From positions 1 through 63,039 of the forward strand of contig CAZJSD010000002.1 of the NCBI GenBank assembly GCA_964548815.1: 63,039 bases of DNA. Direction: 5' to 3'. Shown piece by piece: positions 28,269 to 60,580 of the stretch (the stretch's first letter is position 1; each line of letters begins with the position of its first letter). Made by a program: the position numbers and the translations under genes. Source of the stretch: an uncultured Muribaculaceae bacterium (lineage in GTDB: Bacteria; Bacillota_I; Bacilli_A; RF39; UBA660). Below the pieces are notes generated by a model, which was not told the DNA's origin, made no database searches, and saw only the letters and a list, made by a program, of their open reading frames with translations.

Positions 28269-30683
28269 TTATTTTATTACGAAACTAACTAATTTTTTAG
28301 GAACAACTATTTCTTTTATTATTTCGTGTCCTTCTAAATAATTCTTAACATTATCTATTTCTTTAGCTTTTTCTTTCATTTCTTCTTCTGTAACAGAATC
28401 ATCTACTACTATTTTTCCTCTTACTTTTCCATTTACTTGAACAACCATTTCAAATGTATCTTCCACTAATTTAGATTCATCACATTTTGGCCATTCTTCA
28501 TAAGAAATAGTATTATCATGTCCTAATTTATTCCATATTTCTTCCGTTACAAATGGTGCGATTGGATTTAATAACTTTAAAAATCCTTCTGCGTATTCTT
28601 TAGGGAATACTTCTTCTTTTTGAACTGCATTTAAGAAAATCATTAACTGAGATATAGCTGTATTAAATGATAATTTTTCATAATCTTCAGTTACTTTCTT
28701 AATAGTTTGATTATAGATTTTTTCTAAGTTTTTATTTTCTTTATCTTGAATCTTAGATTCTTCAATAAACATTCTATATACTTTATCTATAAATTTCTTT
28801 GCACCATTTACGCCTTCTTCGCTCCAAGGTTTTTCAGCTTCTAATGGTCCCATAAACATTTCATATAATCTTAAAGTATCTGCACCATATGTATTTGCGA
28901 CATCCATTGGATCTACTGCATATTCTGGATATCTTTTTCCCATCTTTAATCCATTTGAACCAAGAATCATTCCTTGGTGAACTAATTTAGTAAATGGTTC
29001 TTGAACACCCACTAATTTTTTATCATATAAATATTCATTCCACATTCTTGCATATAACAAATGTCCAACTGCATGTTCTGGACCACCAACATATAAATCT
29101 ACTGGCATCCAATGATCTATTAATTCTTTTCTAGCAAATTCATTATCATTCTTTGGATCAATATATCTTAAGAAATACCAAGAAGAAGCTGCTGAACCAG
29201 GCATTGTAGAAGTTTCTCTAACTCCTTTTTTACCATTAATAGTTACATTCTTCCATTCAGTCGCACTCTCAAGTGGTGCTTTTCCATTTCTTCCTTTATA
29301 ATCAGAAAGTTCTGGTAAAACTAATGGTAACTCGCTGTCATCTAAAGCCTCTTGAGTACCATCTTCAAAATTAACTATAGGAATTGGTTCACCCCAATAT
29401 CTTTGTCTAGCAAATATCCATTCTCTTATTCTATAATTTGTTTGTTCTCTTCCTTTACCCATCTTAACTAGTTTTTCAGTAATTGCTTTTTTAGCTTCTT
29501 CAACAGTTAAACCAGTAAATTCTTCACTATTAATTAATTTACATCCTTTTCCTAAGTAATCTTGTTTTTCAAAAGCGCAAGTATCAGTTTCTCTTCCATC
29601 AATTACTTGAATCATTGGAATATCATATTTAACTGCATATTCATAATCTCTTTGATCATGAGATGGTACTGCCATAACTGCTCCTGTACCATAACTAGCT
29701 AAAACAAAGTCTCCTAAATAAATAGGTACTTCTTTATTATTAACAGGATTAATTGCCATTACTCCTTCTAATTTAACACCTGATTTATCTTTATTCATTT
29801 CAGTTCTATCAAAATCAGACTTTTTAGCTGTTTCTTCTCTATATTTTTCTACTTCATCAAAATTAGTTATTCTTGTCTTTAATTCATCAACTAATTTACT
29901 TTCAGGCGCAAGTACCATAAATGTAATACCATATATAGTTTCAATACATGTAGTATAAATAGAAAATTTCCCTCCGCCTACTATATCAAAATCTACTTCT
30001 ACACCAGTACTTTTTCCTATCCAGTTTCTTTGCATCTCTTTAGTTGATTCTGGCCAGTCTAATTCATCTAATCCAGATAGTAATTTTTCAGCATATTTAG
30101 GCATATCAATAACCCATTGTTTCATATTTTTTCTAACAACAGGATATCCTCCTCTTTCACTTTTACCATCAATTACTTCATCGTTAGCAAGTACTGTTCC
30201 TAATTCTTCACACCAGTTAACAGGCATATCTATTTGTTTCGCAAGTCCATCTTCATACAATCTTTTAAAAATCCATTGAGTCCATTTATAATAAGATGGT
30301 TCATGAGAAGATATACATCTATCCCAATCAAATGATAAACCAATTGATTTTAATTGTTTAGTAAAATACTCTATATTCTTTTGTGTAAAGCCATCAGGAT
30401 GTTTACCAGTCTTAATCGCAAATTGTTCAGCTGGTAATCCAAATGAATCATATCCAATTGGATGAAGAACATTATATCCTTGCATTCTTTTCATTCTTGA
30501 CACAATATCTGTTGCGGTATAACCTTCAACATGCCCTGCATGTAAACCTACTCCTGATGGATAAGGAAACATGTCTAAAGCATAATACTTAGGCTTACTA
30601 AAGTCTTCTACATCCGTCTTAAATGTTTTATTTTTATCCCAATATTCTATCCATTTCTTTTCTACTTCTTTAAAATTATACAT
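28269..30683 (-). CDS. leuS: Leucine--tRNA ligase
   Basis: About 804 aa with a HIGH-region variant (GLHAGHVEGY), KMGKR (KMSKS-type) motif and typical LeuS N-terminus YNFKEVEKKW. The start is placed at ATG 30683 (AGGAAG SD); the ORF track begins at a GTG at 30689. Confidence 0.9.
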   Translation of the reverse strand: MYNFKEVEKKWIEYWDKNKTFKTDVEDFSKPKYYALDMFPYPSGVGLHAGHVEGYTATDIVSRMKRMQGYNVLHPIGYDSFGLPAEQFAIKTGKHPDGFTQKNIEYFTKQLKSIGLSFDWDRCISSHEPSYYKWTQWIFKRLYEDGLAKQIDMPVNWCEELGTVLANDEVIDGKSERGGYPVVRKNMKQWVIDMPKYAEKLLSGLDELDWPESTKEMQRNWIGKSTGVEVDFDIVGGGKFSIYTTCIETIYGITFMVLAPESKLVDELKTRITNFDEVEKYREETAKKSDFDRTEMNKDKSGVKLEGVMAINPVNNKEVPIYLGDFVLASYGTGAVMAVPSHDQRDYEYAVKYDIPMIQVIDGRETDTCAFEKQDYLGKGCKLINSEEFTGLTVEEAKKAITEKLVKMGKGREQTNYRIREWIFARQRYWGEPIPIVNFEDGTQEALDDSELPLVLPELSDYKGRNGKAPLESATEWKNVTINGKKGVRETSTMPGSAASSWYFLRYIDPKNDNEFARKELIDHWMPVDLYVGGPEHAVGHLLYARMWNEYLYDKKLVGVQEPFTKLVHQGMILGSNGLKMGKRYPEYAVDPMDVANTYGADTLRLYEMFMGPLEAEKPWSEEGVNGAKKFIDKVYRMFIEESKIQDKENKNLEKIYNQTIKKVTEDYEKLSFNTAISQLMIFLNAVQKEEVFPKEYAEGFLKLLNPIAPFVTEEIWNKLGHDNTISYEEWPKCDESKLVEDTFEMVVQVNGKVRGKIVVDDSVTEEEMKEKAKEIDNVKNYLEGHEIIKEIVVPKKLVSFVIK

Positions 30684-31053
30684 TTTCACTCTTCCTTTCT
30701 AAATGTTTTAAATACTTCGCTATAAAATAATATACAACCCAAATCGTTGGTAGTATTAATATAACTAATACAACTATTTTTAACCATACTTCTTTTATAT
30801 TAAAAACAATCATTACTAATCCTGCAAACATGAGCGCATTAAAGAAATTTAAAATTCTAAGTGTCCTAATCAAACCTATTTTTTCTATATCAATTTTATA
30901 ATATCCTTTTAATACTTCTATTTCAGCGGGATATTTTTTCTTCTTTGATTTTTTTCTTGCCCTAGATTGTGGGAAAACCACAAAAAGCATATAAATCAAA
31001 TAACCCACTATAAAATAAACAATAAAATATAAAAAATATTGCATAAAATTCAT
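30676..31053 (-). CDS. Small integral membrane protein of unknown function, first gene of the T-box/leuS operon
   Basis: 125 aa with 3 predicted TM helices and a K-rich loop (RARKKSKKKK). AGGAG lies 8 nt before the ATG. Its stop overlaps the leuS start by 8 nt. Confidence 0.65.
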   Translation of the reverse strand: MNFMQYFLYFIVYFIVGYLIYMLFVVFPQSRARKKSKKKKYPAEIEVLKGYYKIDIEKIGLIRTLRILNFFNALMFAGLVMIVFNIKEVWLKIVVLVILILPTIWVVYYFIAKYLKHLERKSENV

Positions 31054-31069
31054 AAACTCAACTCCTTTT

Positions 31070-31269
31070 TAAAGAAAAAAATTCCTATGATGTAAGGACT
31101 CTTATAAGCGGTACCACCTTACTTCATAGAAACTATGCACTTAAATCTTTATCGCAGATATGCGTTATTTGACTCCAAAACAAGTTCATAAATTCATTAT
31201 TATTAGCTTTCACCAACCACTAACTCTCTTTAAATAAATCCTTTATTACTACTTTTCTTCGCTGTCAAC
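31070..31269 (-). ncRNA. T-box leader (tRNA-Leu-responsive riboswitch, tentative specifier CUU)
   Basis: The minus strand contains the AAGGUGGUACCGC T-box sequence (31108..31120), an AGAGAG box, a GGUUGGUGAAAGC distal-loop-like segment, GAA-CUU-G in the expected specifier region, and a terminator ending in U7 (31074..31080). Confidence 0.8.
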
Positions 31270-31275
31270 AAATTA

Positions 31276-35308: not shown

Positions 35309-36142
35309 CTAATCAAATAGTTTTTCTATGACCAAATCTTTAGATTTTAAATCATTATTCTTTCTTAATAATAAGTTTTCATAAAATTTAATTAAAAAAC
35401 TGTTATCTTCTTCTATATTTAATTTTCTATTGAAGTAATTACTCCTAACTAAAGCATTTCTATAATAAACTGATTTATCTTCGAATAAAGAATTATCCAC
35501 ACTATATCCTAAACTAGTCAAATATTTTTCTATAAAAACAGCAGTTGTTCTTGTATTGCCTTCTCTAAATGGATGTACCTGCCATATTCTAGAAGAGAAC
35601 TCAGCTATACTATTTATTATATCTACTATATTCATTTTTTTATAATTCTTTTCTTTTTCTAAAGAAATATCATATTCTAATGATTCTTCTAAAGTATTAA
35701 AATCTCCATATGAAACAGAATCATTATTTAATATTTTTTCTGATTTTGAAAAATTAACATTTCTAAAATTACCCGCAAATTCATATACATCTTGAAATAA
35801 ATATTTATGAACATATTTTAGATAATCTACTGATAATTCAAACTTATCCTCATTTAATAATTCAACTATCCTTGTAGATACAAAATCACACTCTAATTCA
35901 TCTTCATTGATATCATTATTTTTTTCTTTATAGTATTTATTTAACTCTTTTTGAACTTCTTCTATATTGATATTATCTTTTATATATTTTTCTTTTAGTT
36001 CTAAAAGATACTTAGAAGGCTTTAAATTATCTACTTCTTGAAGTCCAATAGCCATATCCCATTGTGTTTTTTTTAGATAAGTACTTGTTTTATAATCTTC
36101 TACATATTCATTAACACTAGAATCATAATTATATTCATCCAT
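35309..36142 (-). CDS. Fic/Fido domain protein with non-canonical active-site motif
   Basis: Contains HPFREGNTRTTA where the canonical motif is HxFx(D/E)GNGRxxR. The start is placed at MDEYNY (GGGGAGG SD 7 nt upstream); the ORF track's extension to 36214 runs through the promoter. Confidence 0.75.
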   Translation of the reverse strand: MDEYNYDSSVNEYVEDYKTSTYLKKTQWDMAIGLQEVDNLKPSKYLLELKEKYIKDNINIEEVQKELNKYYKEKNNDINEDELECDFVSTRIVELLNEDKFELSVDYLKYVHKYLFQDVYEFAGNFRNVNFSKSEKILNNDSVSYGDFNTLEESLEYDISLEKEKNYKKMNIVDIINSIAEFSSRIWQVHPFREGNTRTTAVFIEKYLTSLGYSVDNSLFEDKSVYYRNALVRSNYFNRKLNIEEDNSFLIKFYENLLLRKNNDLKSKDLVIEKLFD

Positions 36143-36165
36143 ATTAAGCCTCCCCACATATTTCA

Positions 36166-36193
36166 TTATAACATTATTATGTTTTTTTTCAAT
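36166..36193 (-). promoter_or_regulatory. Sigma-A-type promoter for the fic gene
   Basis: Minus strand TTGAAA-16 nt-TATAAT with TGt extended -10. Confidence 0.55.
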
Positions 36194-36197
36194 TTTA

Positions 36198-36218
36198 AAG
36201 TGCAAATTTTGCACTTTG
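36198..36218. promoter_or_regulatory. Perfect 10-1-10 palindrome AAAGTGCAAA-T-TTTGCACTTT between the divergent fic and spoVS genes (candidate operator)
   Basis: Read directly from the sequence. It lies 4 nt upstream of the fic -35 hexamer. Confidence 0.5.
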
Positions 36219-36281
36219 ACATTTTAGTAATAATTATTATTCATGGATAATATATTTTTATTAGAAAGAGAGGAAATAATT

Positions 36282-36542
36282 ATGGAAATAATCAAAGTGT
36301 CATCTAAATCAAATCCTAATTCAGTTGCAGGTGCTCTCGCAAATACATTAAGAGAAAAAAATGCGATAGAAATGCAGGCAATTGGTGCAGGAGCACTTAA
36401 TCAAGCTATTAAAGCAATTGCTATTGCAAGAGGTTTTGTCGCACCTTCTGGTAAAAATTTAGTATGTATTCCTGCATTTAGTAATATATTAATTGATAAT
36501 GAAGAAAAAACTGCGATTAAACTTATAGTAGAAGCTAGATAA
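36282..36542 (+). CDS. spoVS: Stage V sporulation protein S family protein
   Basis: 86 aa. MEIIKVSSKSNPNSVAGALA...AIGAGALNQAIKAIAIARGF is the highly conserved SpoVS sequence. A GAGAGGAAA SD precedes the ATG at 36282. Confidence 0.9.
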   Translation: MEIIKVSSKSNPNSVAGALANTLREKNAIEMQAIGAGALNQAIKAIAIARGFVAPSGKNLVCIPAFSNILIDNEEKTAIKLIVEAR

Positions 36543-36831
36543 GCTTCTTTTTTATTTCATCTATATCATCAAAATTAATTTTACAATTAGATATAGTTAT
36601 AATTCTATTAATAAAATTTATATATTTAATTTGACCTATAAAACTTATATATTCAAAATTATAAAAATATGATATTTCTACATTTTCTCCTATTCTAAAT
36701 CTTTTTAAAATTTTATCTATACTTTCTATATCAACATACTTATTTTCATGTTTTTCCTCTTCCCTTTTTATTGCTTCTTTTAAGCCACCTAAAGCATCAA
36801 AAGGCATAAATATTTTTGCTCTATTCTGCAT
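36535..36831 (-). CDS. yolD: YolD-like protein
   Basis: 98 aa with an MPFDALGGLKEAI motif. It overlaps the upstream Y-family polymerase gene by 11 nt, the usual yolD/uvrX-type pairing. Confidence 0.7.
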   Translation of the reverse strand: MQNRAKIFMPFDALGGLKEAIKREEEKHENKYVDIESIDKILKRFRIGENVEISYFYNFEYISFIGQIKYINFINRIITISNCKINFDDIDEIKKKLI

Positions 36832-38065
36832 TGTGACCTCCTATATATTTATTTCTCTCTCTTGCGGTACCATTCTTATCTAAACTAATACATCTAAGAA
36901 TAGAATTTTTACCAAACTTATTCTTTAAATTACTTATAGTTTTTTCTAATACTTCTTCTTTAGTATTATCTTCTTTCTTAAATAAATTTAACTGTTCATA
37001 TTCTTTCTTACCTAAATCATTAAAAGATAATCCTATTCTTCTAATTTTTGAATCTTCTAAAACTCTATAACTATATTCATCTAATATTAATCTTAATATT
37101 TCCTTATAACTATTTGTTTGATCACATTTAAAAGAAAAATGTACACCACCTGATTCTTCCCTAGTAAAACCTAAAAATACTGATATATTACTTGTATATA
37201 AATCTTTGGAAACTAGTTCTAACACTAATACATCTATCATTTCAATTAATACTACCTTGGCTTCTCTATAGTTATAATCTCTAAATAATATTTGACTATG
37301 GCTAATAGATGAAGACTTAGGTTTATAAGACTTAACTTCTTTCAAAGTACATGTTTCTCTTCCCCAAGCATGATCAATTAATATTTCGGCGTTAATACCA
37401 AATTCTTTAAACAAAATCTTTGGATTTGCTTTCGCAACATCTTCCATAGTTTTTAAATGATGTTTATGTAGTCTATTTTCTATACCTCTTCCTATTTGCC
37501 AAAAGTCAGAAAGTGGTGTATGATTCCATAACTTTTCTTTATATAATTCTTCATTTAAATATCCTATATGACTCTTATTCTTTTTAGATATAATATCTAA
37601 AGCAATTTTAGCAAGATACATATTAGTACCAATACCCGCAGTTGCGCATATTCCTGTTCTTTTATATACTTCATCTATTATAGTTTTTGCCAAACACACT
37701 TCATTTTTCTTATATGTTTTTAAATAAGAAGTAACATCTATAAATACTTCATCTATAGAATAGACATATATGTCTTCTTTAGAAAAAAAGTCTAAATAAA
37801 TACCATATACTTTAGCAGAATATTCTATATACTTTTTCATTCTAGGTTTTGCGACAATATATTTTATTCCTTTAGGTATATCATATATTCTACATCTGTT
37901 TTTAATACCTCTTTCTTTCATTTTAGGAGAAATAGCGAGACATATTGCGCCCTTACTTCTTCCTATATCTGCGACTACTAAATCTGTCTTAAAAGGATCA
38001 AGACCTCTTTCTACACACTCTACAGACGCAAAAAATGTTTTTAAATCAATACAAATATATGTCAT
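36821..38065 (-). CDS. Y-family DNA polymerase (UmuC/UvrX/DinB-like)
   Basis: N-terminal ICIDLKTFFASVE (catalytic Asp, FASVE motif) and SIDEVFIDVT motif. The start is placed at MTYICIDL. Confidence 0.8.
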   Translation of the reverse strand: MTYICIDLKTFFASVECVERGLDPFKTDLVVADIGRSKGAICLAISPKMKERGIKNRCRIYDIPKGIKYIVAKPRMKKYIEYSAKVYGIYLDFFSKEDIYVYSIDEVFIDVTSYLKTYKKNEVCLAKTIIDEVYKRTGICATAGIGTNMYLAKIALDIISKKNKSHIGYLNEELYKEKLWNHTPLSDFWQIGRGIENRLHKHHLKTMEDVAKANPKILFKEFGINAEILIDHAWGRETCTLKEVKSYKPKSSSISHSQILFRDYNYREAKVVLIEMIDVLVLELVSKDLYTSNISVFLGFTREESGGVHFSFKCDQTNSYKEILRLILDEYSYRVLEDSKIRRIGLSFNDLGKKEYEQLNLFKKEDNTKEEVLEKTISNLKNKFGKNSILRCISLDKNGTARERNKYIGGHNAE

Positions 38066-38078
38066 AATACCACCTAGC

Positions 38079-38087
38079 AAAATTATA
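38079..38087 (-). promoter_or_regulatory. Extended -10 element (TGaTATAAT) in front of the Y-family polymerase operon
   Basis: Minus strand ACGTATGATATAATT. No good -35 is present. Confidence 0.4.
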
Positions 38088-38119
38088 TCATACGTTTGTT
38101 TGTATTTCTACGAACAAAT

Positions 38120-38148
38120 AAAAAAAAGAATAGATTTTTTTCTATTCT
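38120..38148 (-). terminator. Rho-independent terminator after essC (stop codon inside the stem)
   Basis: AGAAUAGA-AAAAAA-UCUAUUCU followed by U8 on the minus strand. Confidence 0.75.
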
Positions 38149-41100
38149 TTATATTTTTCAACAAATTTAACATATGATGGTAAACCTTTTTTAACAACAA
38201 ATCCAAAGTTATAAGGTACATCCTCTTTCATTTCAGGTATACGCTTAGAAACATTAATAAGCATTTGATCAGATAGACCATTACCTAAATAAATTCCATC
38301 ATTTGCGTTAATATTATCTTTAAACCAACTATCATAATTAAATTTCTTTAATTTATCCACAGTATCAACACAAATAAAGTTTACCATACCTAAACCTGAT
38401 GCATCATTAAATAAGTCTGCAATTTTATTTTGATTATCTGATGATAATTTACTCTTAAATGAAGTTAAACCTAGTATAATACAATTTACTTTAGGAATTC
38501 CATTAAATACTGCCTTATTATTTCCACCATCTTTATATTTCTTTTCACAATCTATATTATAATTAACAAGTGATTCAAAAATTTGATCAAAATTATTATC
38601 AAAATATTTTGTATATTTCTTAATCTCATCATTAAATGCCATATCTTCTGCATTTATAACGATATTACTATATACTTTCTTATAAATAAATTGATAAATT
38701 AATGGTTCCATAATATTCTCAAATAATGTACCATCTTGAGATGTTACCATATTAATCTTTGTCTTAGTAAAATCATAAGTACAAATAGATAAATCTGATT
38801 TATTAACTCCAAGTGCTATATCATCAATATTCTTAATTCCATCTTTAACATCATCAAATGTAACAATCTCTGGTAATATAGGTATCTTCTTAGCAATATC
38901 TTTATATTTATTCTTTAATTGTTCATTTACACTTCTAATATAATTTGGAATTTGATCTTTTTCAGTAACAAAAGCTGTTTGGAATTCATAAGCATTATCT
39001 AGTTTAATTAAACCTCTACCAAATACTTTTGATGGGAATACTTTTCTAACATTACCTAAAATAGTAGAATAATCATCATCATTATTTTGAGTAAGAGAAA
39101 ATACTTGACCAAAATTTTGTTTTAATTTAAATCTAACTCCATTAGGTGTATTAACTGCTAAAACAAAATATATACCATATTTAATAGAATCTCTTGTTAA
39201 TAAATTTAATGTATCATCATAATCAGGATAACTTTCTTGATATCCTTCATAGTTATTTATTACAATAACCATATTAGGAACAGATGATCCACTATTCTTA
39301 CAATATGTTAAATAATCTCCATTATAATTAGCAAATAATTTTTTTCTATTATTCATTTCATTTTGAATCATTTTAAATAAATTATCTATTTTCTCACTAT
39401 CTGATGTATAAACTATATCACCAACATATGGAGAACCTTCAAAATATCTAAGAGCTTCTGATCCAAAATCCATAATATAATAGTTTACTTCAGTAGGTGT
39501 ATACGCAAGCATTGAAGAATAAATCATTGTTGTAATAAAGTTTTCTTTTCCTGATCCTGCAGTACCATATACAAGCATATTCCCTTCTTTACTAAATGGC
39601 ACAGTTAATAATCTTTGTTCCTGCATTTGTGGAACGTCATATTCACCTATAACTAGATTTAAAACAAAGTTTTCTTTTTTATAATTATATTTTTTTATAA
39701 GATCTACTGCTAATATGAAATTAGGTATTCTACTTAACCATAGTGGTTTAGTATGAATATTTTCTTCTAATGCGATATTACATAAATATTTAACAATATT
39801 ATTTAATTCTTCACCTAAGTTCGCAACTGTTTTAACTTCTTTTTTCGTTTCAACATTTCTAGTTACATATCCTATATTATTAACAAATTCAACTGAAGTA
39901 TCTATATTTTTCTTTATACTGTCTGATGGTAAATACTTTCCACCAGTCCATGCTGATTGACCTAGTAAAAATACTTCATCATAACCAACTTGTAAATAAA
40001 ATCTACCTGTTTGAGTTAAGAATGCTGCATCTGGTTTTTTAATAACTTCTGATGAATCACTCTTTTCTTGAACTCTTAAACATACTCTAAATCTTGTATT
40101 TGACCAAATTTGAGAATCAACAACACCACTTGGTTTTTGAGTGGCAAGAATCAAATGAACTCCTAAACTACGACCAATTCTCGCTGTAGATATTAATTGT
40201 TCCATAAATTCAGGTTGTTGTTGTTTTAATTCAGCAAACTCATCTGCAATAATAAGTAAATGTGATACAGGTTCTTTAACCACACCATTTCTGTACATTT
40301 CTTGATATTTATATATATCTATAGTACTTTCTTCACTTATTTCTCTTGCTCTATTAAATAAAGCTTGTCTTCTTTTTAATTCTGATTCAATAGAAGCAAG
40401 TGATCTATTAATTTCTATCTTATCTAAATTTGTAATAACTCCAACTAAATGTGGTAATTTAATACCAGTAGTCTGATTTTCAAAAGCACCAGCTAAACCT
40501 CCACCTTTATAGTCTATCAATATAAATTGAACTTCTTCAGGATGATAATTAACCGCTAATGAAAGAATATAAGTAATAATAAATTCAGATTTACCAGATC
40601 CAGTCATACCTGCTATAAGACCATGTGGTCCATGATACTTTTCATGTAAATCTAGACTTATTTTTTCACCATTCTTACCAACACCAACCATCGCATTCAT
40701 ATTCATAATTGGAGTATTTTCTTCCCATCTATTCTTAGAATTAAACTGTTCTATCTTACCTAGTCCATACATCTCTAAGAAGCCTATTTTCTTAGGTATC
40801 GCACCTTCTCCTTCATCATGTAATTCAACTGGTGTATTAGAAAGCAATTCTACACACTTTGATATATCAATATTTGATTCATCAATAACAAACTTTTGAT
40901 TTTCACTATTAGATACATTTTTAGATATTTCTGATTCTGGTTCACCTAACTGAATAAACGTTTGACATTGATCAGGTAAATTAGATATTCTATCATTTAA
41001 AATTATTAAACTAAATCCTAAATACTTTTTAGAATTAATTAAATGAGTAAATAAATCTAAGTTCCTAACAACTGTATAATTATCCACAATTATTAAGAAT

Positions 41101-42764
41101 AATGTATTAAATGAATCAATTTTAACTTCTTCATTTTCCTTAAATGCTTCATTTCTTTCAACATAAAATTTATCTAAATTATAAGTTAATTCTTTATATT
41201 CTTGTTCATTAGTTGCAAAGAATCTCATTTCTTTACCATTAGACCAAAGGTGTGGCATAGATTTATATTTTTCCCATTTTTTAGAATTATCTCTTGTTGT
41301 AAATACCGCAATTTTTAATGATTCATAACTATGAAATGTCATTGCTTGAAGCATTATATTATCAATTATTTTATTTTGTAATTTTTCTTTACCAACAATC
41401 GCAGATATATAATTATCTCTAAAAGAAAATGGAATTGGTACTTTTTCTAATGTCTTATTATAATTACCTATTTCTTTCATTTTTTCCATAAGATTATCTT
41501 CAATCATGGTAAAGTGTTCTTCAGGATAATCTATTTCTACTTTCATAGTAGAATTACCTGTACCTAAACTAACACTTAGGAAATCTTCATCATATACTCT
41601 TCTTTCCCATAGTCTATCTTGTTTTTCATATATTACTTTTTCACATTCTTCTAAACTAAGGTAACTCTTATGCATTAAATCTTCTTGTTTTACTTTTTCT
41701 TCTTTTAATTGTTCTTTTATTTTTTCTATATATTCACTATATTTTCTTTGTCTTTTCTTCTCTCTCTTTTTTCTTAAATGTTTTTGAAAAGCATTAGTCA
41801 CAAGTGGCCATAAAAAGAAACTAAGCATCATTGCCGCACTCATTACTAATTGAGGCATTACTTCTTTTATTGTCTTTCTACCTTCATTAACACTACTCAT
41901 AGTTGTATAAAATGTCATAACAGAAGTCATACTCATTGTAAGCATTGGGCCAATAGTTAATATCGCAGGCATCTCTTCTCCTTCACCTTTTGAAGGAGGC
42001 GCATCTATCTTAACTTTTAATTCATCTATTTTGTATAAGAATCTAGGTTTTCTAAAGAAATAATCATCTTGTGAATAAACTTCCATATCTTTATCTTCAT
42101 TAGGATCTTCTACAACAGCACTGTCACTTACTTTTATTTCATATTTTCCCATAAAAGTACTAACTCTATTAAACGGATTATTGATACCTACAACTAGATT
42201 TCCATCTATCTTTAAGAAAACTAATTTTAATCCCATATAGAATAGTACATCACCATAATCTATTTTTTGTTTGTTATATGCACATAATCCATTAATAAAT
42301 ATAGGATAATTATCCACAGTTTTATTTAAATATAATATATCATTTTCTTGTTTTATAACAAAATCATTTTCACTAACAAAATCAACATTATAAATAATAT
42401 TAGCTCTATCACTTCTTCCAATAGTCATACCTATTGATGTTTCATTTGCGCAAGAATAATATTGAATAGTATTTTCAAATAAGGGCTCTGTAAATAATAT
42501 TAAACCATTAGTAGAATAAGAATGATTTAAAACTATCATACTGTTCTCTTCTAAATAAGTAAAAGGAACTTTTTTACCAGCACTCGCAATATAGTAATCA
42601 CTATTACTAATTAATCTCCACTTACCATCTGGACTAGCTTCAACATTAATAATATTTCTATCTATTCCTTTATCATCTATTTCATTTAACCAAATATTAC
42701 CTTCTATTCTATCTGGTAGCTTATATTCTAATAGCTTTCTATCTTTAATCAATAAAACCTTCAT
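38142..42764 (-). CDS. essC: Type VII secretion FtsK/SpoIIIE-family ATPase EssC
   Basis: 1540 aa with an N-terminal FHA-like region, two TM helices (about aa 270-330) and three P-loop domains (GMTGSGKSE, GTAGSGKEN, and a degenerate third). Confidence 0.85.
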   Translation of the reverse strand: MKVLLIKDRKLLEYKLPDRIEGNIWLNEIDDKGIDRNIINVEASPDGKWRLISNSDYYIASAGKKVPFTYLEENSMIVLNHSYSTNGLILFTEPLFENTIQYYSCANETSIGMTIGRSDRANIIYNVDFVSENDFVIKQENDILYLNKTVDNYPIFINGLCAYNKQKIDYGDVLFYMGLKLVFLKIDGNLVVGINNPFNRVSTFMGKYEIKVSDSAVVEDPNEDKDMEVYSQDDYFFRKPRFLYKIDELKVKIDAPPSKGEGEEMPAILTIGPMLTMSMTSVMTFYTTMSSVNEGRKTIKEVMPQLVMSAAMMLSFFLWPLVTNAFQKHLRKKREKKRQRKYSEYIEKIKEQLKEEKVKQEDLMHKSYLSLEECEKVIYEKQDRLWERRVYDEDFLSVSLGTGNSTMKVEIDYPEEHFTMIEDNLMEKMKEIGNYNKTLEKVPIPFSFRDNYISAIVGKEKLQNKIIDNIMLQAMTFHSYESLKIAVFTTRDNSKKWEKYKSMPHLWSNGKEMRFFATNEQEYKELTYNLDKFYVERNEAFKENEEVKIDSFNTLFLIIVDNYTVVRNLDLFTHLINSKKYLGFSLIILNDRISNLPDQCQTFIQLGEPESEISKNVSNSENQKFVIDESNIDISKCVELLSNTPVELHDEGEGAIPKKIGFLEMYGLGKIEQFNSKNRWEENTPIMNMNAMVGVGKNGEKISLDLHEKYHGPHGLIAGMTGSGKSEFIITYILSLAVNYHPEEVQFILIDYKGGGLAGAFENQTTGIKLPHLVGVITNLDKIEINRSLASIESELKRRQALFNRAREISEESTIDIYKYQEMYRNGVVKEPVSHLLIIADEFAELKQQQPEFMEQLISTARIGRSLGVHLILATQKPSGVVDSQIWSNTRFRVCLRVQEKSDSSEVIKKPDAAFLTQTGRFYLQVGYDEVFLLGQSAWTGGKYLPSDSIKKNIDTSVEFVNNIGYVTRNVETKKEVKTVANLGEELNNIVKYLCNIALEENIHTKPLWLSRIPNFILAVDLIKKYNYKKENFVLNLVIGEYDVPQMQEQRLLTVPFSKEGNMLVYGTAGSGKENFITTMIYSSMLAYTPTEVNYYIMDFGSEALRYFEGSPYVGDIVYTSDSEKIDNLFKMIQNEMNNRKKLFANYNGDYLTYCKNSGSSVPNMVIVINNYEGYQESYPDYDDTLNLLTRDSIKYGIYFVLAVNTPNGVRFKLKQNFGQVFSLTQNNDDDYSTILGNVRKVFPSKVFGRGLIKLDNAYEFQTAFVTEKDQIPNYIRSVNEQLKNKYKDIAKKIPILPEIVTFDDVKDGIKNIDDIALGVNKSDLSICTYDFTKTKINMVTSQDGTLFENIMEPLIYQFIYKKVYSNIVINAEDMAFNDEIKKYTKYFDNNFDQIFESLVNYNIDCEKKYKDGGNNKAVFNGIPKVNCIILGLTSFKSKLSSDNQNKIADLFNDASGLGMVNFICVDTVDKLKKFNYDSWFKDNINANDGIYLGNGLSDQMLINVSKRIPEMKEDVPYNFGFVVKKGLPSYVKFVEKYKE

Positions 42765-42798
42765 TAAAGCCCTTCTTCCTATTCTTTATACTATATAT

Positions 42799-42827
42799 AT
42801 TATATCTTTTATATCATTTCAAGTCAA
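42799..42827 (-). promoter_or_regulatory. Near-consensus sigma-A promoter dedicated to essC
   Basis: Minus strand TTGACT-17 nt-TATAAT, about 35 nt upstream of the essC ATG. Confidence 0.65.
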
Positions 42828-42834
42828 TTAATAA

Positions 42835-42861
42835 TAAAGAAAAAGAACCAAAAATGGTTCT
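42835..42861 (-). terminator. Rho-independent terminator closing the WXG/substrate operon
   Basis: AGAACCA-UUUU-UGGUUCU followed by UUUUCUUUAUU. It lies about 140 nt after the stop of the 454-aa gene. Confidence 0.7.
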
Positions 42862-43004
42862 ATTCAAACATTTTTAAAAATTCATAAAAAGTAATTCTTG
42901 GTTTCATAAAAACAATTCTGTTTCTTTGTGTACAAAAATTGTTAATTTGATTTTATATTAAAAATTCTATCAAAAGATATTTACATCTATCGCAGACTAT
43001 TTAA

Positions 43005-44369
43005 CTAATTCATGCCAAAAGTATTTTTTGTCCATTTCTTATAAATATTTCTTGCACTTGTTGTATTTGTATTTTTATTATTACTATTATTTTGATTATT
43101 ATTTGTATTACTACTTGGTGTAGGATGATGTCCACCAAATGTGGATGTACCAGTAACCTTATAATCCATTGGTGTATAGTGAGAAGTAGAGTTAGTATTA
43201 GTATTAGTATTGCTTTTATTTGCAGCTGCTGCTCTACCTTCTCTAACTGCTTTTTCAGCAGGTGTTTCTTTTGGATGATCTTTTCTATATTGTTCCGATT
43301 GTTCTGCAGCTCTCTGTTTTGCTTCTTCCTCAGAATGAGGATAATTACCTCCCACAGTTGAAGGACCTGTACCGCCAGGTGTTGAACCTCCTCCTGATGA
43401 AGGATTATATCCATTTCCTCCCGTACCACCATAATAAGGTGAGCCTCCTCCTGATGATGGATTATTAGAAGATGGATTATTAATTGATTCAGTAGAACCA
43501 TCCATTTTTTGTGGTTCAGGTTTAACTATTTCGGTAGTTCTACCACCCTTTACATATGAATCAAAATCTGGCATTGATGGATAATTATAATTTGTTTTAA
43601 CTACTAATGATGAGTCATATGATACTTTCTTTGCAGAATCTGGTAATGCATTTTCTATTTTACTTATATTAGTTTCATAGTTATACATCCAACTAAACAT
43701 ACATTGACGATAATACTCTGTATTGTCAAATAGTTTTTCAACAACACCATGTACATATCTTAAATAAGAATCACTTGAAACCATTGAACTTAATGATAAG
43801 AATTTTTCATAGTTTTGTTGAAATCTCCATCTAAAATCATCAAATGAATCTATTGCGGCTGAAAACTTATTTATATTTATTGAAAAATATTCTTCTTTTC
43901 CAAGAGGTGTAAATGGTATATTAGGACTAATAGGATCTAATCCTCCACTTGAATCACTTGTTGTATCTTTCATAGTTCCTGAACCATCAACAAATGTACC
44001 AGTTGATGAACCTTCAACAGCAGTTTTAAATGATTTTAATTTATTTTCAATATTTGTTGCTTTTGTATTTAAACTATCAAAATCAGTATCACTTTCCATA
44101 CTCTTTTGTATAGTATCTATTTCAGACGCTATTTTTATTACTTCTATATATTTTTGAATAGCTGCCTTTATTTCATCTAATTTTAATGATAATGCTTCAT
44201 ATGAATTAAGTAATATCGAACTTGAGTTAGCGTTCCATTCTGCAGATTTAAATGATGATGCAGAACTCTCTGCTGCTTGTTTTAATGAAGGAATAGATGA
44301 TGAAAGTGACTCTAATTGTGATTGAACTGAAGATAGATTTATATTATTAAAATAATTTGTCTTATACAT
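43005..44369 (-). CDS. Putative T7SS substrate: helical N-terminal domain plus long G/S/N/P/T-rich low-complexity tail
   Basis: 454 aa with no TM helix or signal peptide. The first ~110 aa are a helical hairpin-like region (AEWNANSS at the turn). The C-terminal ~170 aa are compositionally biased. It is located in the WXG operon. Confidence 0.5.
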   Translation of the reverse strand: MYKTNYFNNINLSSVQSQLESLSSSIPSLKQAAESSASSFKSAEWNANSSSILLNSYEALSLKLDEIKAAIQKYIEVIKIASEIDTIQKSMESDTDFDSLNTKATNIENKLKSFKTAVEGSSTGTFVDGSGTMKDTTSDSSGGLDPISPNIPFTPLGKEEYFSININKFSAAIDSFDDFRWRFQQNYEKFLSLSSMVSSDSYLRYVHGVVEKLFDNTEYYRQCMFSWMYNYETNISKIENALPDSAKKVSYDSSLVVKTNYNYPSMPDFDSYVKGGRTTEIVKPEPQKMDGSTESINNPSSNNPSSGGGSPYYGGTGGNGYNPSSGGGSTPGGTGPSTVGGNYPHSEEEAKQRAAEQSEQYRKDHPKETPAEKAVREGRAAAANKSNTNTNTNSTSHYTPMDYKVTGTSTFGGHHPTPSSNTNNNQNNSNNKNTNTTSARNIYKKWTKNTFGMN

Positions 44370-44383
44370 TGTTTCACCCTCCT

Positions 44384-45448
44384 CTATTTTCTACTTTCTA
44401 AAAATGCAGACATTATGTCAGCTAATGCTTTATCCGAATTTTCTCCTGGCATAGCAGCAGTAGTACCACTATCAAATGCACCTGATGTCGTTATACTTTC
44501 TAATAATTCCTTATCAACACCACCAGTATTTACAGCTGCAGCATTTGAATTGATTTTTCCATCTGTATGAACTTCGTTTATGGTATTAGTATTAACTCCA
44601 TAAGCATCAGTTGTGACAGAATTTTCTCTAACATTATCATTAGCATGAGTTTCATTTATTAAACCTTGATTTACACCTTGTGCATTTATATTAGCTTCAT
44701 TACTATTTATATTATCATTAATTACTACTGTATTAATTCCTTCTTCATTTACACCCTGTGCATTTGTATCAGCTGTAGTTGCATTAACATTATCGTTAGC
44801 TTTTATAGAAGTAAATGTTTCACTCATTAATTTAGAATCAACTTGTTTATTTTGTTCCACTAATTTTTCAACTGATGTTGTTGCTTTAGGTATTAGTTCA
44901 GATACTATTGATTTTATATTTTCTAATGAATATTCTTTACCTTTTGCTTCAAGTTGTTGCCAGAATCTATCTCCCGCTTCACCTCTCCACATTTTATCTC
45001 TTCCATCTACAATAGATTGTATTTCATCAAGACTATCCTTTATCTTTTTAGCAAGACTTTTTATCTGTTCACATGCATTTAATGTAGAATCATATTTAAA
45101 ATACACATATGTACCATCTGTAGGTACATTATCACCAGGATGTATTGGTTTTGTTGGATCTAAAATAATATCTGGTGTTTCTATACGCGAATCTAGTCCT
45201 GTATCTTTTGAATCTGGATTTTGTCCTCCTGGTCCATTTGGGCTCATATCAATATCTGTTTTTACTATCTTAGCATCTAGTCCTGTACTTTTTGAATCTG
45301 GATTTTGTCCTCCTGGTCCATTTTGATATACAGCATCCTGTGTTTTTGTAATTCTTGGGCCTAGTGAATCAGTTGTTGTTCTATTAATTGGTTGTGTAGG
45401 ATCAATATTCCAGTTTGATTTTGATATTATTGAATTTAAATCAGCCAT
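44384..45448 (-). CDS. Putative T7SS substrate with an internal WXG100-like domain flanked by repeats
   Basis: 354 aa. N-terminal 28-aa repeats (GPGGQNPDSK-TGLD), a central MWRGEAGDRFWQQL (W-x-G) helical domain, and C-terminal N-x-N/AQGVN repeats. Confidence 0.55.
   Translation of the reverse strand: MADLNSIISKSNWNIDPTQPINRTTTDSLGPRITKTQDAVYQNGPGGQNPDSKSTGLDAKIVKTDIDMSPNGPGGQNPDSKDTGLDSRIETPDIILDPTKPIHPGDNVPTDGTYVYFKYDSTLNACEQIKSLAKKIKDSLDEIQSIVDGRDKMWRGEAGDRFWQQLEAKGKEYSLENIKSIVSELIPKATTSVEKLVEQNKQVDSKLMSETFTSIKANDNVNATTADTNAQGVNEEGINTVVINDNINSNEANINAQGVNQGLINETHANDNVRENSVTTDAYGVNTNTINEVHTDGKINSNAAAVNTGGVDKELLESITTSGAFDSGTTAAMPGENSDKALADIMSAFLESRK
45191..45323. repeat. Two 49-nt near-identical direct repeats with 84-nt period inside the 354-aa gene
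   Basis: 45191..45239 versus 45275..45323, with 2 mismatches by hand alignment. Confidence 0.8.
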
Positions 45449-45463
45449 TTTTAATCATCCTTC

Positions 45464-45772
45464 CTATATTTTTTTATTTGCGAAATAATTATCAAAGTCT
45501 GTATATGCTTTATGACCTTTTTCAAGATCTTCACAACCATCTTGTAAACATTCACAATATTTATTTATTAAGTCTATATATCCTTCTAATTGTGCTGTAT
45601 ATTTTTTAGATATAGTTCCCTTCCAAAAACCATTTAAATCACCAATAGTAGTTTTTAATTCTTTATTAGCAGCCTTAATAGTCTCGTGACTAGTCTTTAA
45701 CGTTTGACTATCATATCTATATGTATTAAACGTACTAAAATAAATTGTATCACTACTTGATTTTGTAGCCAT
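45464..45772 (-). CDS. WXG100 family protein (divergent)
   Basis: 102 aa, predicted helix-turn-helix with FWKGT at the turn. Confidence 0.6.
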   Translation of the reverse strand: MATKSSSDTIYFSTFNTYRYDSQTLKTSHETIKAANKELKTTIGDLNGFWKGTISKKYTAQLEGYIDLINKYCECLQDGCEDLEKGHKAYTDFDNYFANKKI

Positions 45773-45800
45773 AGTATCATCCCTCCTATTTTTTACCCTC

Positions 45801-45860
45801 GTCAGTAAATATTAAGAAAGTAATATTCACTGACCAGAGACTCTATATTATAGAGTTTCT
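45801..45860 (-). promoter_or_regulatory. Two consecutive stable hairpins without U-tract directly after esxA (candidate RNA stabiliser or processing site)
   Basis: Hairpin 1 at 45836..45860 has a 10-bp stem. Hairpin 2 at 45801..45834 has a 14-bp stem (GUCAGUGAAUAUUA / UAAUAUUUACUGAC, one G:U). The SD of the next gene follows. Confidence 0.55.
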
Positions 45861-45864
45861 TATA

Positions 45865-46155
45865 TTATTGCATAAGTTGTGTATCTGCTTTTTGATAGTT
45901 TTCAACAACTGATGTTAAGTGTGCAGCTTCATCCGTAACTGCTTTGTAGAAATCTGCAAATTTTGCTTGTAATGTGTTGAATTTAGATTTTGAATTTTCA
46001 GCTGCAGTTCCACCCCAAACATCTTCATTACCAATTTTATTTACTAATGCAGTTATATCATCTAATACAGTTTGCATATCTCTTGAATAATTTTGAAGAT
46101 TTTGGCTTATTGTATTAATTTGAGCATATGTCAAATTTGAACCGTTCATATTCAT
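45865..46155 (-). CDS. esxA: WXG100 family type VII secretion target (EsxA-like)
   Basis: 96 aa with canonical VWGGTAAE W-x-G turn and typical EsxA length and helical pattern. Confidence 0.8.
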   Translation of the reverse strand: MNMNGSNLTYAQINTISQNLQNYSRDMQTVLDDITALVNKIGNEDVWGGTAAENSKSKFNTLQAKFADFYKAVTDEAAHLTSVVENYQKADTQLMQ

Positions 46156-46172
46156 TCCTCCTTGTTAATTTA

Positions 46173-46463
46173 TTATTTTATACCATCTTGGTTAGCTTCA
46201 TTTACTTTTTGATAAGAATTAGCTGCTTGAATAAGGAACTCACCCATTTCATTAATAGCTTGATATAAAGTTCTCATATTTTCAATTTCAACAGCTACAG
46301 CTCCAGTATACTTTTCAGCATCTGAACCTTTCCAATAATTTCTTAAATTATCATTTTCACCATTAATTTTAGTAAGTATTTCATTAAAGTCATTAGCCTT
46401 TTCTAGAATACTATTACCTAATTGTCTAGTTTGATTATAATCGATACTTAAATCCATAACCAT
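46173..46463 (-). CDS. WXG100 family protein
   Basis: About 96 aa with YWKGSDAEKY at the turn. The start is placed at the ATG (MVMDLS) 5 nt after GGGAGG; the ORF track's TTG start at 46478 is rejected. Confidence 0.7.
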   Translation of the reverse strand: MVMDLSIDYNQTRQLGNSILEKANDFNEILTKINGENDNLRNYWKGSDAEKYTGAVAVEIENMRTLYQAINEMGEFLIQAANSYQKVNEANQDGIK

Positions 46464-46482
46464 TCCACCTCCCTTCAATATC

Positions 46483-46719
46483 TTATAGTAGGATTAATTT
46501 TGAGCCATTATGAATACCTGAATTCTTCACATATACATTTTCATCAATTAATTTACAATCTTCTTTATTCATCAATAGATATTGTTTAGGCTGTAAATAC
46601 TTCACTGATTCAATAATAGTGTTTTTAATTGTTCCTACCTTCTTATTAACAGGAATAAATATGTCATAATTTTCATCAAGTAATGGAATAAAAATAGTAA
46701 CTAATATCTTATTATTCAT
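46483..46719 (-). CDS. esaB: EsaB/YukD ubiquitin-like T7SS protein
   Basis: 78 aa from MNNKILVTIF. Small beta-grasp-like pattern (DIFIPVNKKVGTIK...GSKLILL). AAGGAG SD precedes it. This is the typical first gene of T7SSb loci. Confidence 0.65.
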   Translation of the reverse strand: MNNKILVTIFIPLLDENYDIFIPVNKKVGTIKNTIIESVKYLQPKQYLLMNKEDCKLIDENVYVKNSGIHNGSKLILL

Positions 46720-46794
46720 ATAATTCTCCTTACTAGATAAAACTAGAGTTCTACCTCTACCATATCTTATCCTATAAGTAATAATAACAAATAA

Positions 46795-46823
46795 AGAAAA
46801 AAATGTAAACATAATTGTTTACA
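46795..46823 (-). terminator. Rho-independent terminator after the MBL-fold hydrolase gene
   Basis: AUGUAAACA-AUUA-UGUUUACAU followed by U7. Confidence 0.7.
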
Positions 46824-46836
46824 TTTTACTGTTATT

Positions 46837-47397
46837 TCACATATTAAAAAATATGCAATTATTCTTTTCATAACCTAAACTTGTATCTATTCCATGTCCA
46901 GGATATATAGTTATATTATCGTTATACTTTTTTATATTTTTTATTGATTTACACATATCATTATAATTACCATATTCTAAATCTGTTCTACCTATGCTTA
47001 GATGAAAAATAAAATCACCTGTAAACATTATATCTTCTTTTTTAAAGTAATAAGTAACTGAATCATTTCTATGACCAGGTGTATATATTACTTCAAAATA
47101 TAAGCCGTTTATATTGTATTCTTTTTCTTTTACATCTATTAAGTTTTTATAGTTTAGTTCTTTATTTACATTATGATAATATATAGGAACATCATATACC
47201 TTTATTAAATCATCTAACGCTCCTATATGGTCAAAATGAGCATGTGTAATAAGAATCCCTTCTATTTTAGTGTCTCCTATCATATTAAGTATCTTATCTA
47301 TTTCATCACCAGGATCTACTATTAAACCAAAATTATTGTCTTTTATTAGATAACAATTTTCATTTAAATATCCTACTTCTACTTTTTTTATTTCCAT
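46837..47397 (-). CDS. MBL-fold metallo-hydrolase
   Basis: HAHFDHIG (HxHxDH) motif. 186 aa. Confidence 0.8.
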   Translation of the reverse strand: MEIKKVEVGYLNENCYLIKDNNFGLIVDPGDEIDKILNMIGDTKIEGILITHAHFDHIGALDDLIKVYDVPIYYHNVNKELNYKNLIDVKEKEYNINGLYFEVIYTPGHRNDSVTYYFKKEDIMFTGDFIFHLSIGRTDLEYGNYNDMCKSIKNIKKYNDNITIYPGHGIDTSLGYEKNNCIFFNM

Positions 47398-56591: not shown

Positions 56592-56602
56592 TTTTCCACC
56601 CC

Positions 56603-58582: not shown

Positions 58583-58677
58583 ATTACCACCGGTCCCTTC
58601 TTATTATCTAATTATATCAAAAAATACTACATATTTTTTATTTCGGCAAGAAAAAAATAATAAGGGATGTAAAGAAA

Positions 58678-58704
58678 TGTAAAAACAGATGATTAATCAT
58701 CTGT
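58678..58704 (-). terminator. Rho-independent terminator after the 602-aa membrane protein gene (stop codon in the loop)
   Basis: ACAGAUGA-UUAA-UCAUCUGU followed by UUUUAC. Confidence 0.65.
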
Positions 58705-60492: not shown

Positions 60493-60542
60493 TCTAAACA
60501 CCTCTTAGATTTATATTTTATTACAATTAATAATTCATTTCA

Positions 60543-60580
60543 AGAAAAAAATAAATATAACTTATTAATTATATTTATTT
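60543..60580 (-). terminator. AT-only terminator-like hairpin after srtB
   Basis: 11-bp A/U stem AAAUAAAUAUA / UAUAUUUAUUU followed by a U-run. Confidence 0.4.

Follow-up and report, generated by a model that had tools for sequence, protein, structure and literature searches.

A pared-down type VII secretion locus without EssA, EssB or EsaA homologues in uncultured gut and rumen Bacilli

The window analysed here, 63,039 nucleotides of contig CAZJSD010000002.1 from an uncultured bacterium, corresponds to nearly the whole of a 63,223-bp ruminant-gut metagenome scaffold (ERZ28654662, XIEF21-1_SAMN15829918 scaffold_532). It contains, at 38142-46719, a T7SS (type VII secretion system) locus of seven minus-strand genes encoding a YukD/EsaB-like protein, three WXG100 proteins (WXG1, WXG2 and WXG3), a 354-residue WXG-domain protein, a 454-residue LXG-like protein and the 1540-residue ATPase EssC, flanked by the gene of an MBL-fold hydrolase and by a Pol IV/YolD cassette. 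On balance, we favour the reading that the locus encodes an intact, distinct and streamlined T7SS, lacking homologues of EssA, EssB and EsaA, in an uncultured clade of gut and rumen Bacilli. The locus is probably functional; its assembly and its secretion activity we infer from sequence. The T7SSb subtype is a major weapon of bacterial competition in Bacillota, and the parts needed to move folded substrates across membrane and wall are still debated, the roles of EssA, EssB and EsaA especially.

None of the YukC/EssB (PF10140), EssA or EsaA families appears in the precomputed Pfam annotation of every called gene of the scaffold (63 kb). The scaffold genes without a Pfam match were rescanned and gave nothing relevant, and the large scaffold proteins, considered as EsaA, are all otherwise assigned or lack a match to a T7SS family. 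Kinase, PP2C, vWA, DUF6382 and DUF5050 families are likewise not found by Pfam among the scaffold genes, nor are FHA-only, beta-propeller or Tad families. As positive controls we took two T7SSb loci, from Listeria monocytogenes and from a B. mycoides plasmid, both of which have esxA-esaA-essA-esaB-essB-essC in a single block. With the control EsaA, EssA and EssB as phmmer queries, nothing was found at E≤10 in 972 stop-to-stop open reading frames (ORFs; 270 kb, comprising the window and nine related loci), while the control EssC and EsxA were recovered in that same search. At the locus itself, no species sampled has homologues of EssA, EssB or EsaA as part of the system. They are most likely absent from the whole lineage, a genome-wide absence that we infer from searches covering the scaffold and the surroundings of essC.

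More than 100 homologues of the window's EssC, full-length and 42-83% identical to it, form three subclades; nearly all are metagenomic, the few named ones being “Bacilli bacterium”. Among GTDB representative genomes, close relatives occur in metagenome-assembled genomes (MAGs) from rumen, goat and sheep and in the human-gut Clostridium sp. CAG:433; a 53% EssC relative is encoded on the complete 1.49-Mb chromosome OW818670.1 and a 44% relative on a 1.27-Mb contig. For synteny, we sampled ±10 kb of essC in 13 loci (the window, L006, L007, L010-L016, L019, L020 and L022), which cover all three subclades. No YukC, EssA or EsaA match occurs within 10 kb of essC in any of them, and no transmembrane (TM) protein occurs inside the T7 gene block, the sole TM-bearing ORFs (288 and 354 residues) lying at the far end of the L007 block. 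In L020 (10001-15548) the whole T7 locus consists of essC, an 83-residue YukD-like gene and two WXG100 genes, with murA-type housekeeping genes on one side and opposite-strand genes on the other; this relative (P0104) is prevalent, on 27 contigs, and its locus is a natural minimal set. Around essC, gene order shifts from one relative to another, and DUF4176 was found in one relative. The comparison of related genomes proposed in the earlier note on this stretch, which was made from the letters alone, has thus shown the pared-down layout to be kept in 13 loci and three EssC subclades, and this clade-wide conservation makes a minimal apparatus likelier than a single locus could. The four-gene core found across the clade is a good candidate for defining a minimal T7SS. 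We also considered the locus as a mobile island and rejected the idea, as one or both of its neighbours, the MBL hydrolase gene and the Pol IV cassette, recur in L011, L013, L015 and L022.

EssC scores 1007 bits against TIGR03928 (T7_EssCb_Firm; cutoff 778) and matches PF01580 at E=5e-47, and its best match in the PDB is B. subtilis YukB (9qks; 397 bits). Its layout comprises an N-terminal FHA-like region (residues ~1-215), two TM helices (~265-321), a DUF/stalk region and three FtsK/SpoIIIE P-loop domains; TM-like hydropathy peaks are present both in the EssC of the window and in its relatives. Domain D1, in which Walker A (GMTGSGKS) and Walker B (IIADE) are both intact, is the most conserved region, with a mean identity to the window residue of 78% over 119 homologues, while the N-terminal ~215 residues are conserved less (29-38%). 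The essC reading frame is intact in more than 100 homologues, and EssC is evidently under constraint. The FHA-like region deserves a closer look: the N-terminal extension of the window EssC (~230 residues) has no PF00498 match at E≤0.1 and was not aligned with YukB by phmmer, while homologues at 53-63% identity do match PF00498/PF16697. Across the clade, the glycine of the GR motif is the sole FHA-motif residue that is at least 90% conserved. Because this glycine is all of the GR motif that is nearly invariant, binding of phosphothreonine by the FHA of clade EssC appears unlikely, as has likewise been reported for the FHA domains of T7SSb (Garrett, Higginson and Palmer 2024; PMC11217815).

For the protein of 78 residues that we take as the YukD/EsaB equivalent (TsxB in the nomenclature of the variants), the ORF runs mechanically to 46812, and the gene call and the orthologues begin at MNNKIL. 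Pfam YukD matches it below threshold (E=0.004) over profile positions 3-76 of 76 and matches four of six clade orthologues; a PDB sequence search gave nothing relevant, either with the protein alone or with a six-sequence profile, and hhalign against canonical EsaB returned a probability of 11%, with only the YD(I/L)xIP strand aligned. In a bona fide T7SSc locus, TscB likewise stays below the Pfam threshold. The gene adjoins essC in eight relatives, and its size, position and conservation fit YukD. WXG1, whose gene call begins at MDLSIDY and gives 94 residues, WXG2, which carries a C-terminal YxxxD motif, and WXG3 all score above the PF06013 gathering score (Table 1); in seven orthologues of WXG2, the tryptophan of WxG and the aspartate of the C-terminal Y/F-x-x-x-D do not vary. 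The third WXG100 protein is different in its rate of change: in L013 and L014 WXG1 retains 69-78% identity, while WXG3 retains 27-31%, and WXG3 is probably a cargo-associated partner. In L022 (3330-4358) the homologue of WXG3 makes up the C-terminal part of a protein of 342 residues, so that there the WXG module is fused to an N-terminal extension.

This division is seen throughout the locus. Against L022, the nearest species and our reference for separating core from cargo, the conserved proteins are 83% (EssC), 87% (YukD), 91% (WXG1) and 92% (WXG2) identical, while the variable ones are 48% (WXG3), 44% (354-residue protein) and 40% (454-residue protein) identical. We read EssC, YukD, WXG1 and WXG2 as the conserved machinery, and WXG3 and the two larger proteins as variable cargo or partners of cargo. 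The 354-residue protein has a sub-threshold PF06013 match, and an iterative profile built within the clade puts it firmly in the WXG100 superfamily; in secondary structure taken from a low-confidence AlphaFold2 model it has a disordered, repeat-bearing N-terminus, a WXG hairpin (~120-216, with MWRGEAG), a repeat-rich tail and a C-terminal helix. It is probably a secreted substrate. Its N-terminal extension contains a duplicated GPGGQNPDSK(S/D)TGLD and its tail repeats of N-x-NAQGVN-like units; an alternative gene call starts 39 codons later (315 residues), and the orthologues in L013 and L014 do not have the N-terminal extension.

The 454-residue protein has no Pfam match, LXG (PF04740) included. 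Its AlphaFold2 model (pLDDT ~40) shows N-terminal helical hairpin modules at 12-121 and 166-241, followed by a G/P/S/N/T-rich low-complexity tail without a recognised domain. The models were made from a two-sequence alignment (454 residues) and from a single sequence (354 residues), with a mean pLDDT of 40-41, and only their secondary structure was used. A homologue search gave one relative, low-complexity words having swamped the candidates. The profile built within the clade ties the N-domain to the N-termini of proteins of 1032-1897 residues and also reaches a 320-residue protein ending in Peptidase_M15_4/VanY and the positional orthologue in CAG:433, which bears a CW_7 cell-wall-binding repeat. 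The profile did not reach a 2573-residue neighbour in L011, which has an LXG-like start and an ADP-ribosyltransferase end. Large polymorphic cargo lies at the same chromosomal site in relatives, namely in L011 (15048-22769; 2573 residues), L013 (3915-9608; 1897 residues), L015 (6593-7555; 320 residues, Peptidase_M15_4/VanY) and L014 (8376-9698; 440 residues, CW_7). No recognisable toxin domain was found by Pfam in the locus of the window. Since relatives of the 454-residue family carry toxin or cell-wall domains, the two larger proteins are best seen as cargo and not as machinery. The two larger WXG-related proteins of the earlier note are thus present, but as fast-evolving cargo and not as candidate machinery, and we rejected the further idea that they are divergent equivalents of EssB and EsaA, as they have no TM segment, evolve fast and belong to WXG100 and LXG-like families. 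In fact, no TM-like segment occurs in any locus protein other than EssC, the maximal 19-residue Kyte-Doolittle mean being ≤0.63 in the five WXG/LXG-like proteins.

Glycosyltransferase genes are a recurrent neighbour of this cargo. GT2 homologues, 35-48% identical, lie in or beside the T7 locus of five relatives, accompanied by GT8 in L022 and L016. They adjoin the LXG-like gene in L012, L013, L016 and L022 and stand at the other end of the block in L014; in L022, four such genes occupy the place where the window, which has no homologue, has a 240-bp spacer (42765-43004). Their products may glycosylate the Ser/Thr/Asn-rich tails of T7 cargo.

The layout of the locus and its signals are collected in Table 1. 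The G+C content of the scaffold is about 25%, and the minus strand carries nearly all of its genes. Between the cargo genes and essC lies a terminator-like hairpin with a T-run, and directly after it the top-scoring promoter-like site of the region, a match to the consensus only; this succession, spanning 42799-42861, suggests that essC is a transcription unit of its own, apart from yukD and the WXG and cargo genes. A further promoter-like site found by the scan lies ahead of yukD (46809-46781), where it is overlapped by the hairpin that follows the MBL hydrolase gene. The automated terminator scan demands at least three G-C stem pairs and left both border hairpins unreported, as their stems have fewer. 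AT-rich hairpins with T-runs are nevertheless visible by eye at both borders, at 38149-38126 and 46826-46801, just where terminators had been placed before, and the one overlapping the end of essC is probably a terminator parting it from the Pol IV/YolD cassette. Much else in the earlier description holds as well: every gene named there was found in its place on the minus strand, hydropathy bears out the lack of TM helices outside EssC, and the flanks are those it gave, with the MBL hydrolase at one end and Pol IV plus YolD at the other.

Table 1. Genes and signals of the T7SS locus and its borders, with glycosyltransferase genes at related loci (positions are those of the window unless a related locus is named)
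Feature	Position	Strand	Remarks
EssC/TsxC, 1540 residues	38142..42764	-	TIGR03928, PF01580 and YukB match
454-residue LXG-like effector (putative)	43005..44369	-	no Pfam match, LXG (PF04740) included
354-residue WXG-domain protein	44384..45448	-	sub-threshold PF06013, residues 125-167, E=0.0018
WXG100 protein 3 (variable)	45464..45772	-	PF06013, 33.1 bits
WXG100 protein 2 (core partner of WXG1)	45865..46155	-	PF06013, 41.5 bits
WXG100 protein 1 (core, EsxA/EsxB-like)	46173..46478	-	PF06013, 41.3 bits (gathering score 27.3)
YukD/EsaB-like small ubiquitin-like protein, 78 residues (TsxB equivalent)	46483..46719	-	sub-threshold Pfam YukD
MBL-fold hydrolase gene	46837-47397		flank on the yukD side
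Pol IV/YolD cassette	36535-38080		flank on the essC side
AT-rich hairpin AAGAATAGA-aaaaaa-TCTATTCTT and T-run	38119..38149	-	overlaps the essC stop codon; read by eye
Promoter-like TTGACT-17-TATAAT	42799..42827	-	just upstream of essC; 11/12 consensus positions
Terminator-like hairpin and T-run	42844..42861	-	between cargo genes and essC; scan match AGAACCAtttttGGTTCT then TTTTCTTT
AT-rich hairpin AAATGTAAAC-aattat-GTTTACATTT and T-run	46793..46826	-	after the MBL hydrolase gene; read by eye
Glycosyltransferase genes	L022 6303-9893; L016 6661-9623; L012 3065-4015; L013 18490-20334; L014 4780-6657		in relatives

For the way in which such a system might work, the B. subtilis YukB/YukD structure and the ESX EccC pore serve as models. 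In the core unit of B. subtilis, YukB is modelled as a central hexameric channel to which YukC contributes just an outer crown, and the FHA and DUF domains of YukB hold YukD between them (PMC12637312); this structure makes it plausible that an EssC hexamer stabilised by YukD is a self-sufficient translocon. EssC would accordingly form a hexamer whose 12 TM helices provide the channel, YukD would clamp the FHA and DUF domains of EssC and so steady the assembly, and a WXG1/WXG2 dimer, in the part of EsxA/EsxB, would engage the ATPase domains of EssC through the C-terminal YxxxD tail of WXG2. The dimer would then be exported along with the helical N-domains of the larger substrates.

Several observations weigh against a streamlined system and are best taken together. 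The YukD assignment is sub-threshold, and the canonical EsaB, used as a phmmer query, also missed the YukD-like protein, so pairwise searches can miss divergent small homologues in this lineage. The searches reached the scaffold and the surroundings of essC, and so unlinked essA, essB and esaA genes, or partners that are not homologous to them, could lie beyond. At least one additional conserved component is present in every T7SS variant described (PMC11217815). The FHA domains of T7SSb bind the EssB pseudokinase (PMC12637312), and the FHA-like region retained here hints at some partner beyond YukD. Finally, the rumen MAG RUG13038 (L010, 10001-14626; EssC 72%) has an orphan essC: its neighbours are ABC transporter and Mur ligase genes, and the 10 kb to each side hold neither yukD nor a WXG gene, which means that the T7 genes of this lineage can lie apart from one another. 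Of the two options of the earlier note, partners encoded elsewhere or a minimal EssC apparatus, both are therefore still live, with the clade-wide layout favouring the second and the orphan essC speaking against it.

If there are further partners, they could be of two kinds. One possibility, which we consider unlikely but worth keeping in mind, is that this is a distinct T7SS variant needing lineage-specific partners unrelated to EssA, EssB and EsaA, unlinked or unrecognisable, in the manner of TscD, TsfJ or TsdI. The additional components of all eight variants of Garrett et al. (PMC11217815), the retained FHA-like domains and the unannotated single-TM and three-TM proteins that end the L007 block would all be in line with it; however, no membrane protein is conserved beside essC across the clade, the four-gene locus L020 has none, and the kinase, phosphatase, FHA-only, vWA and beta-propeller families of other variants are missing from the scaffold. 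An ordinary T7SSb with a split locus, its essA, essB and esaA encoded elsewhere in the chromosome, we regard as quite improbable. The orphan essC of L010, the fluid gene order around essC, the score of EssC above the NCBIfam equivalog cutoff and the keeping of FHA-like domains, to which EssB binds in B. subtilis (PMC12637312), are what such a split would lead one to expect, but the canonical loci of our Listeria and B. mycoides controls keep these genes in one block with essC, and not one of the three was found near essC in 13 loci and three subclades. Furthermore, the EssC of the clade is no nearer to the T7SSb EssC than the T7SSc ATPase is, its FHA region was not aligned with YukB by phmmer, and there are two conserved, non-identical WXG100 proteins in place of a single EsxA.

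The locus might instead be a decaying remnant, its accessories lost in genome reduction and its EssC and WXG proteins no longer secreting. The 1.27-1.49-Mb contigs of near-complete relatives do suggest small genomes, one relative has the orphan essC, and the locus of the window has no recognisable toxin domain. An essC of 1540 codons whose frame is unbroken in over 100 homologues, and in which the catalytic D1 is conserved best, fits poorly with decay, as do the 87-92% identity of YukD, WXG1 and WXG2 where the cargo genes fell to 40-48%, the large toxin cargo kept at the locus by relatives, and the promoter-like, ribosome-binding-site and terminator signals that are all in place. We consider this explanation very improbable.

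The streamlined reading has a more far-reaching form, which we put forward tentatively and as falling short of an even chance: that this is the simplest T7SS yet, in which an FHA-like EssC without EssB, together with a YukD-like protein, makes up the full translocon, with a WXG100 heterodimer as the only other core part, on the pattern of L020, and thus an eleventh subtype beyond T7SSa-j. If selection has indeed kept only EssC, YukD and the WXG100 pair, the clade would offer a natural minimal T7 system, one that defines the machinery sufficient for T7 export across the Gram-positive envelope, and the diversity of T7SSa-j would extend into abundant uncultured gut and rumen Bacilli that the RefSeq-based survey did not sample. 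If unlinked partners exist instead, the finding shrinks to a split locus of modest interest.

The rest of the window, and of the relatives' loci, offers some observations of its own. Genes for a Fic-domain protein and for SpoVS (35309-36542) adjoin the YolD/Pol IV cassette, and SpoIIR, GerQ and CotE genes are found near essC in relatives; on account of these genes, these apparently small-genomed Bacilli are probably spore formers. A T-box leader on the minus strand (31091-31271; Rfam RF00230, 103 bits) stands upstream of a 125-residue ORF and a leucyl-tRNA synthetase gene (28269-30689). At 54972-61390, two large Cadherin-like proteins, one of them also with dockerin and EF-hand matches, are encoded beside a DUF6020 membrane protein and a sortase, and may form a cell-surface adhesin cluster. 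Much of the remaining scaffold is devoted to the biosynthesis of cell-wall glycopolymers and includes two choline-binding GH25 lysozymes.

As for known systems, a T7SS free of EssA, EssB and EsaA is in general already known. From RefSeq, Garrett et al. described eight further arrangements, T7SSc-j (seven from Bacillota and one actinobacterial), without these three proteins, and they show the export of a WXG100 protein by B. anthracis without them (PMC11217815). The earlier premise that in Firmicutes EssC is paired with EssA, EssB and EsaA is thereby outdated. For the present clade itself, a literature search found no paper on its T7SS, and the text supplements of Garrett et al. that were searched have no Erysipelotrich, CAG or “Bacilli bacterium” entries.

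With T7SSb, the locus shares a similar length and layout of EssC, a YukD/EsaB-like protein, WXG100 proteins, LXG-like polymorphic cargo with small helical partners and, in one relative, DUF4176. EssA, EssB and EsaA, which the T7SSb control loci have in one full block, are missing from the scaffold and from the surroundings of essC in the 13 loci, and in place of the single EsxA the clade has a conserved pair of non-identical WXG100 proteins. The EssC of the clade is 29-33% identical to T7SSb EssC (Listeria and B. mycoides) and 31-35% identical to T7SSc TscC (Brevibacillus laterosporus), and the ATPases of T7SSb and T7SSc are themselves 32-35% identical. By these values the divergence of EssC is at the level of subtypes and is not that of a recent derivative of canonical T7SSb. 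As the three defining membrane proteins were not found and EssC is no closer to T7SSb than to T7SSc, the label “type VIIb” given to the locus in the earlier note is unjustified.

T7SSc (B. anthracis, Brevibacillus) resembles the locus in having no EssA, EssB or EsaA, an equally distant ATPase and a YukD-like protein that is sub-threshold, but it differs in its FHA-less TscC, vWA protein, membrane Ser/Thr kinase, PPM phosphatase and EspG-like protein. Pfam finds VWA, Pkinase and PP2C nowhere on the scaffold, while the vWA protein and the FHA-less ATPase were confirmed in the control T7SSc locus L021. T7SSf (Clostridia) is similar in its FHA-bearing ATPase (TsfC, compared by description only), its YukD-like and WXG100 proteins and its lack of an EssB-like kinase or pseudokinase; it differs in its PPM phosphatase TsfF, the DUF6382 and FHA membrane protein TsfJ and the TadZ-like AAA+ ATPase TsfV, none of which is detected on the scaffold. 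T7SSd, e and j differ in their membrane kinase TsxD and large Ig-like envelope protein TsxI (with TsxF/J/K in e and j); of such marks, the scaffold has no kinase, phosphatase or FHA-only family by Pfam, and the locus no TM protein outside EssC. T7SSh and i have the EspG-like chaperone TsxG and the kinase-like single-TM TshM, h being FHA-less and next to Tad genes and i adding the LytR-like TsiN (PMC11217815). Tad, kinase and LytR-type families are not found by Pfam on the scaffold, and here too the lack of a TM protein in the locus outside EssC applies; Garrett et al. identified the EspG-like and TshM-like proteins chiefly from their folds (PMC11217815). In all, PPM phosphatases occur in c, e, f and j, kinases in c, d, e and j, and a separate FHA protein in e, f and j (PMC11217815).

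The simplest of the published variants and in spirit the nearest, T7SSg (Acetivibrio/Paenibacillus), resembles the locus in consisting of two WXG100 proteins, a YukD-like protein, an ATPase and one further protein (PMC11217815), but its TsgC has no FHA, its further protein is the DUF5050 beta-propeller TsgL, and it lies next to Tad pilus genes; neither DUF5050 nor Tad is found on the scaffold. The only parts common to T7SSc-j are the ATPase, WXG100 proteins and, except in T7SSd, a YukD-like protein, their accessories differing by variant (PMC11217815). By its annotated gene content, the locus matches none of the definitions of T7SSc-j, while with their broad core it shares the ATPase and WXG100 proteins and, by a sub-threshold match, the YukD-like protein.

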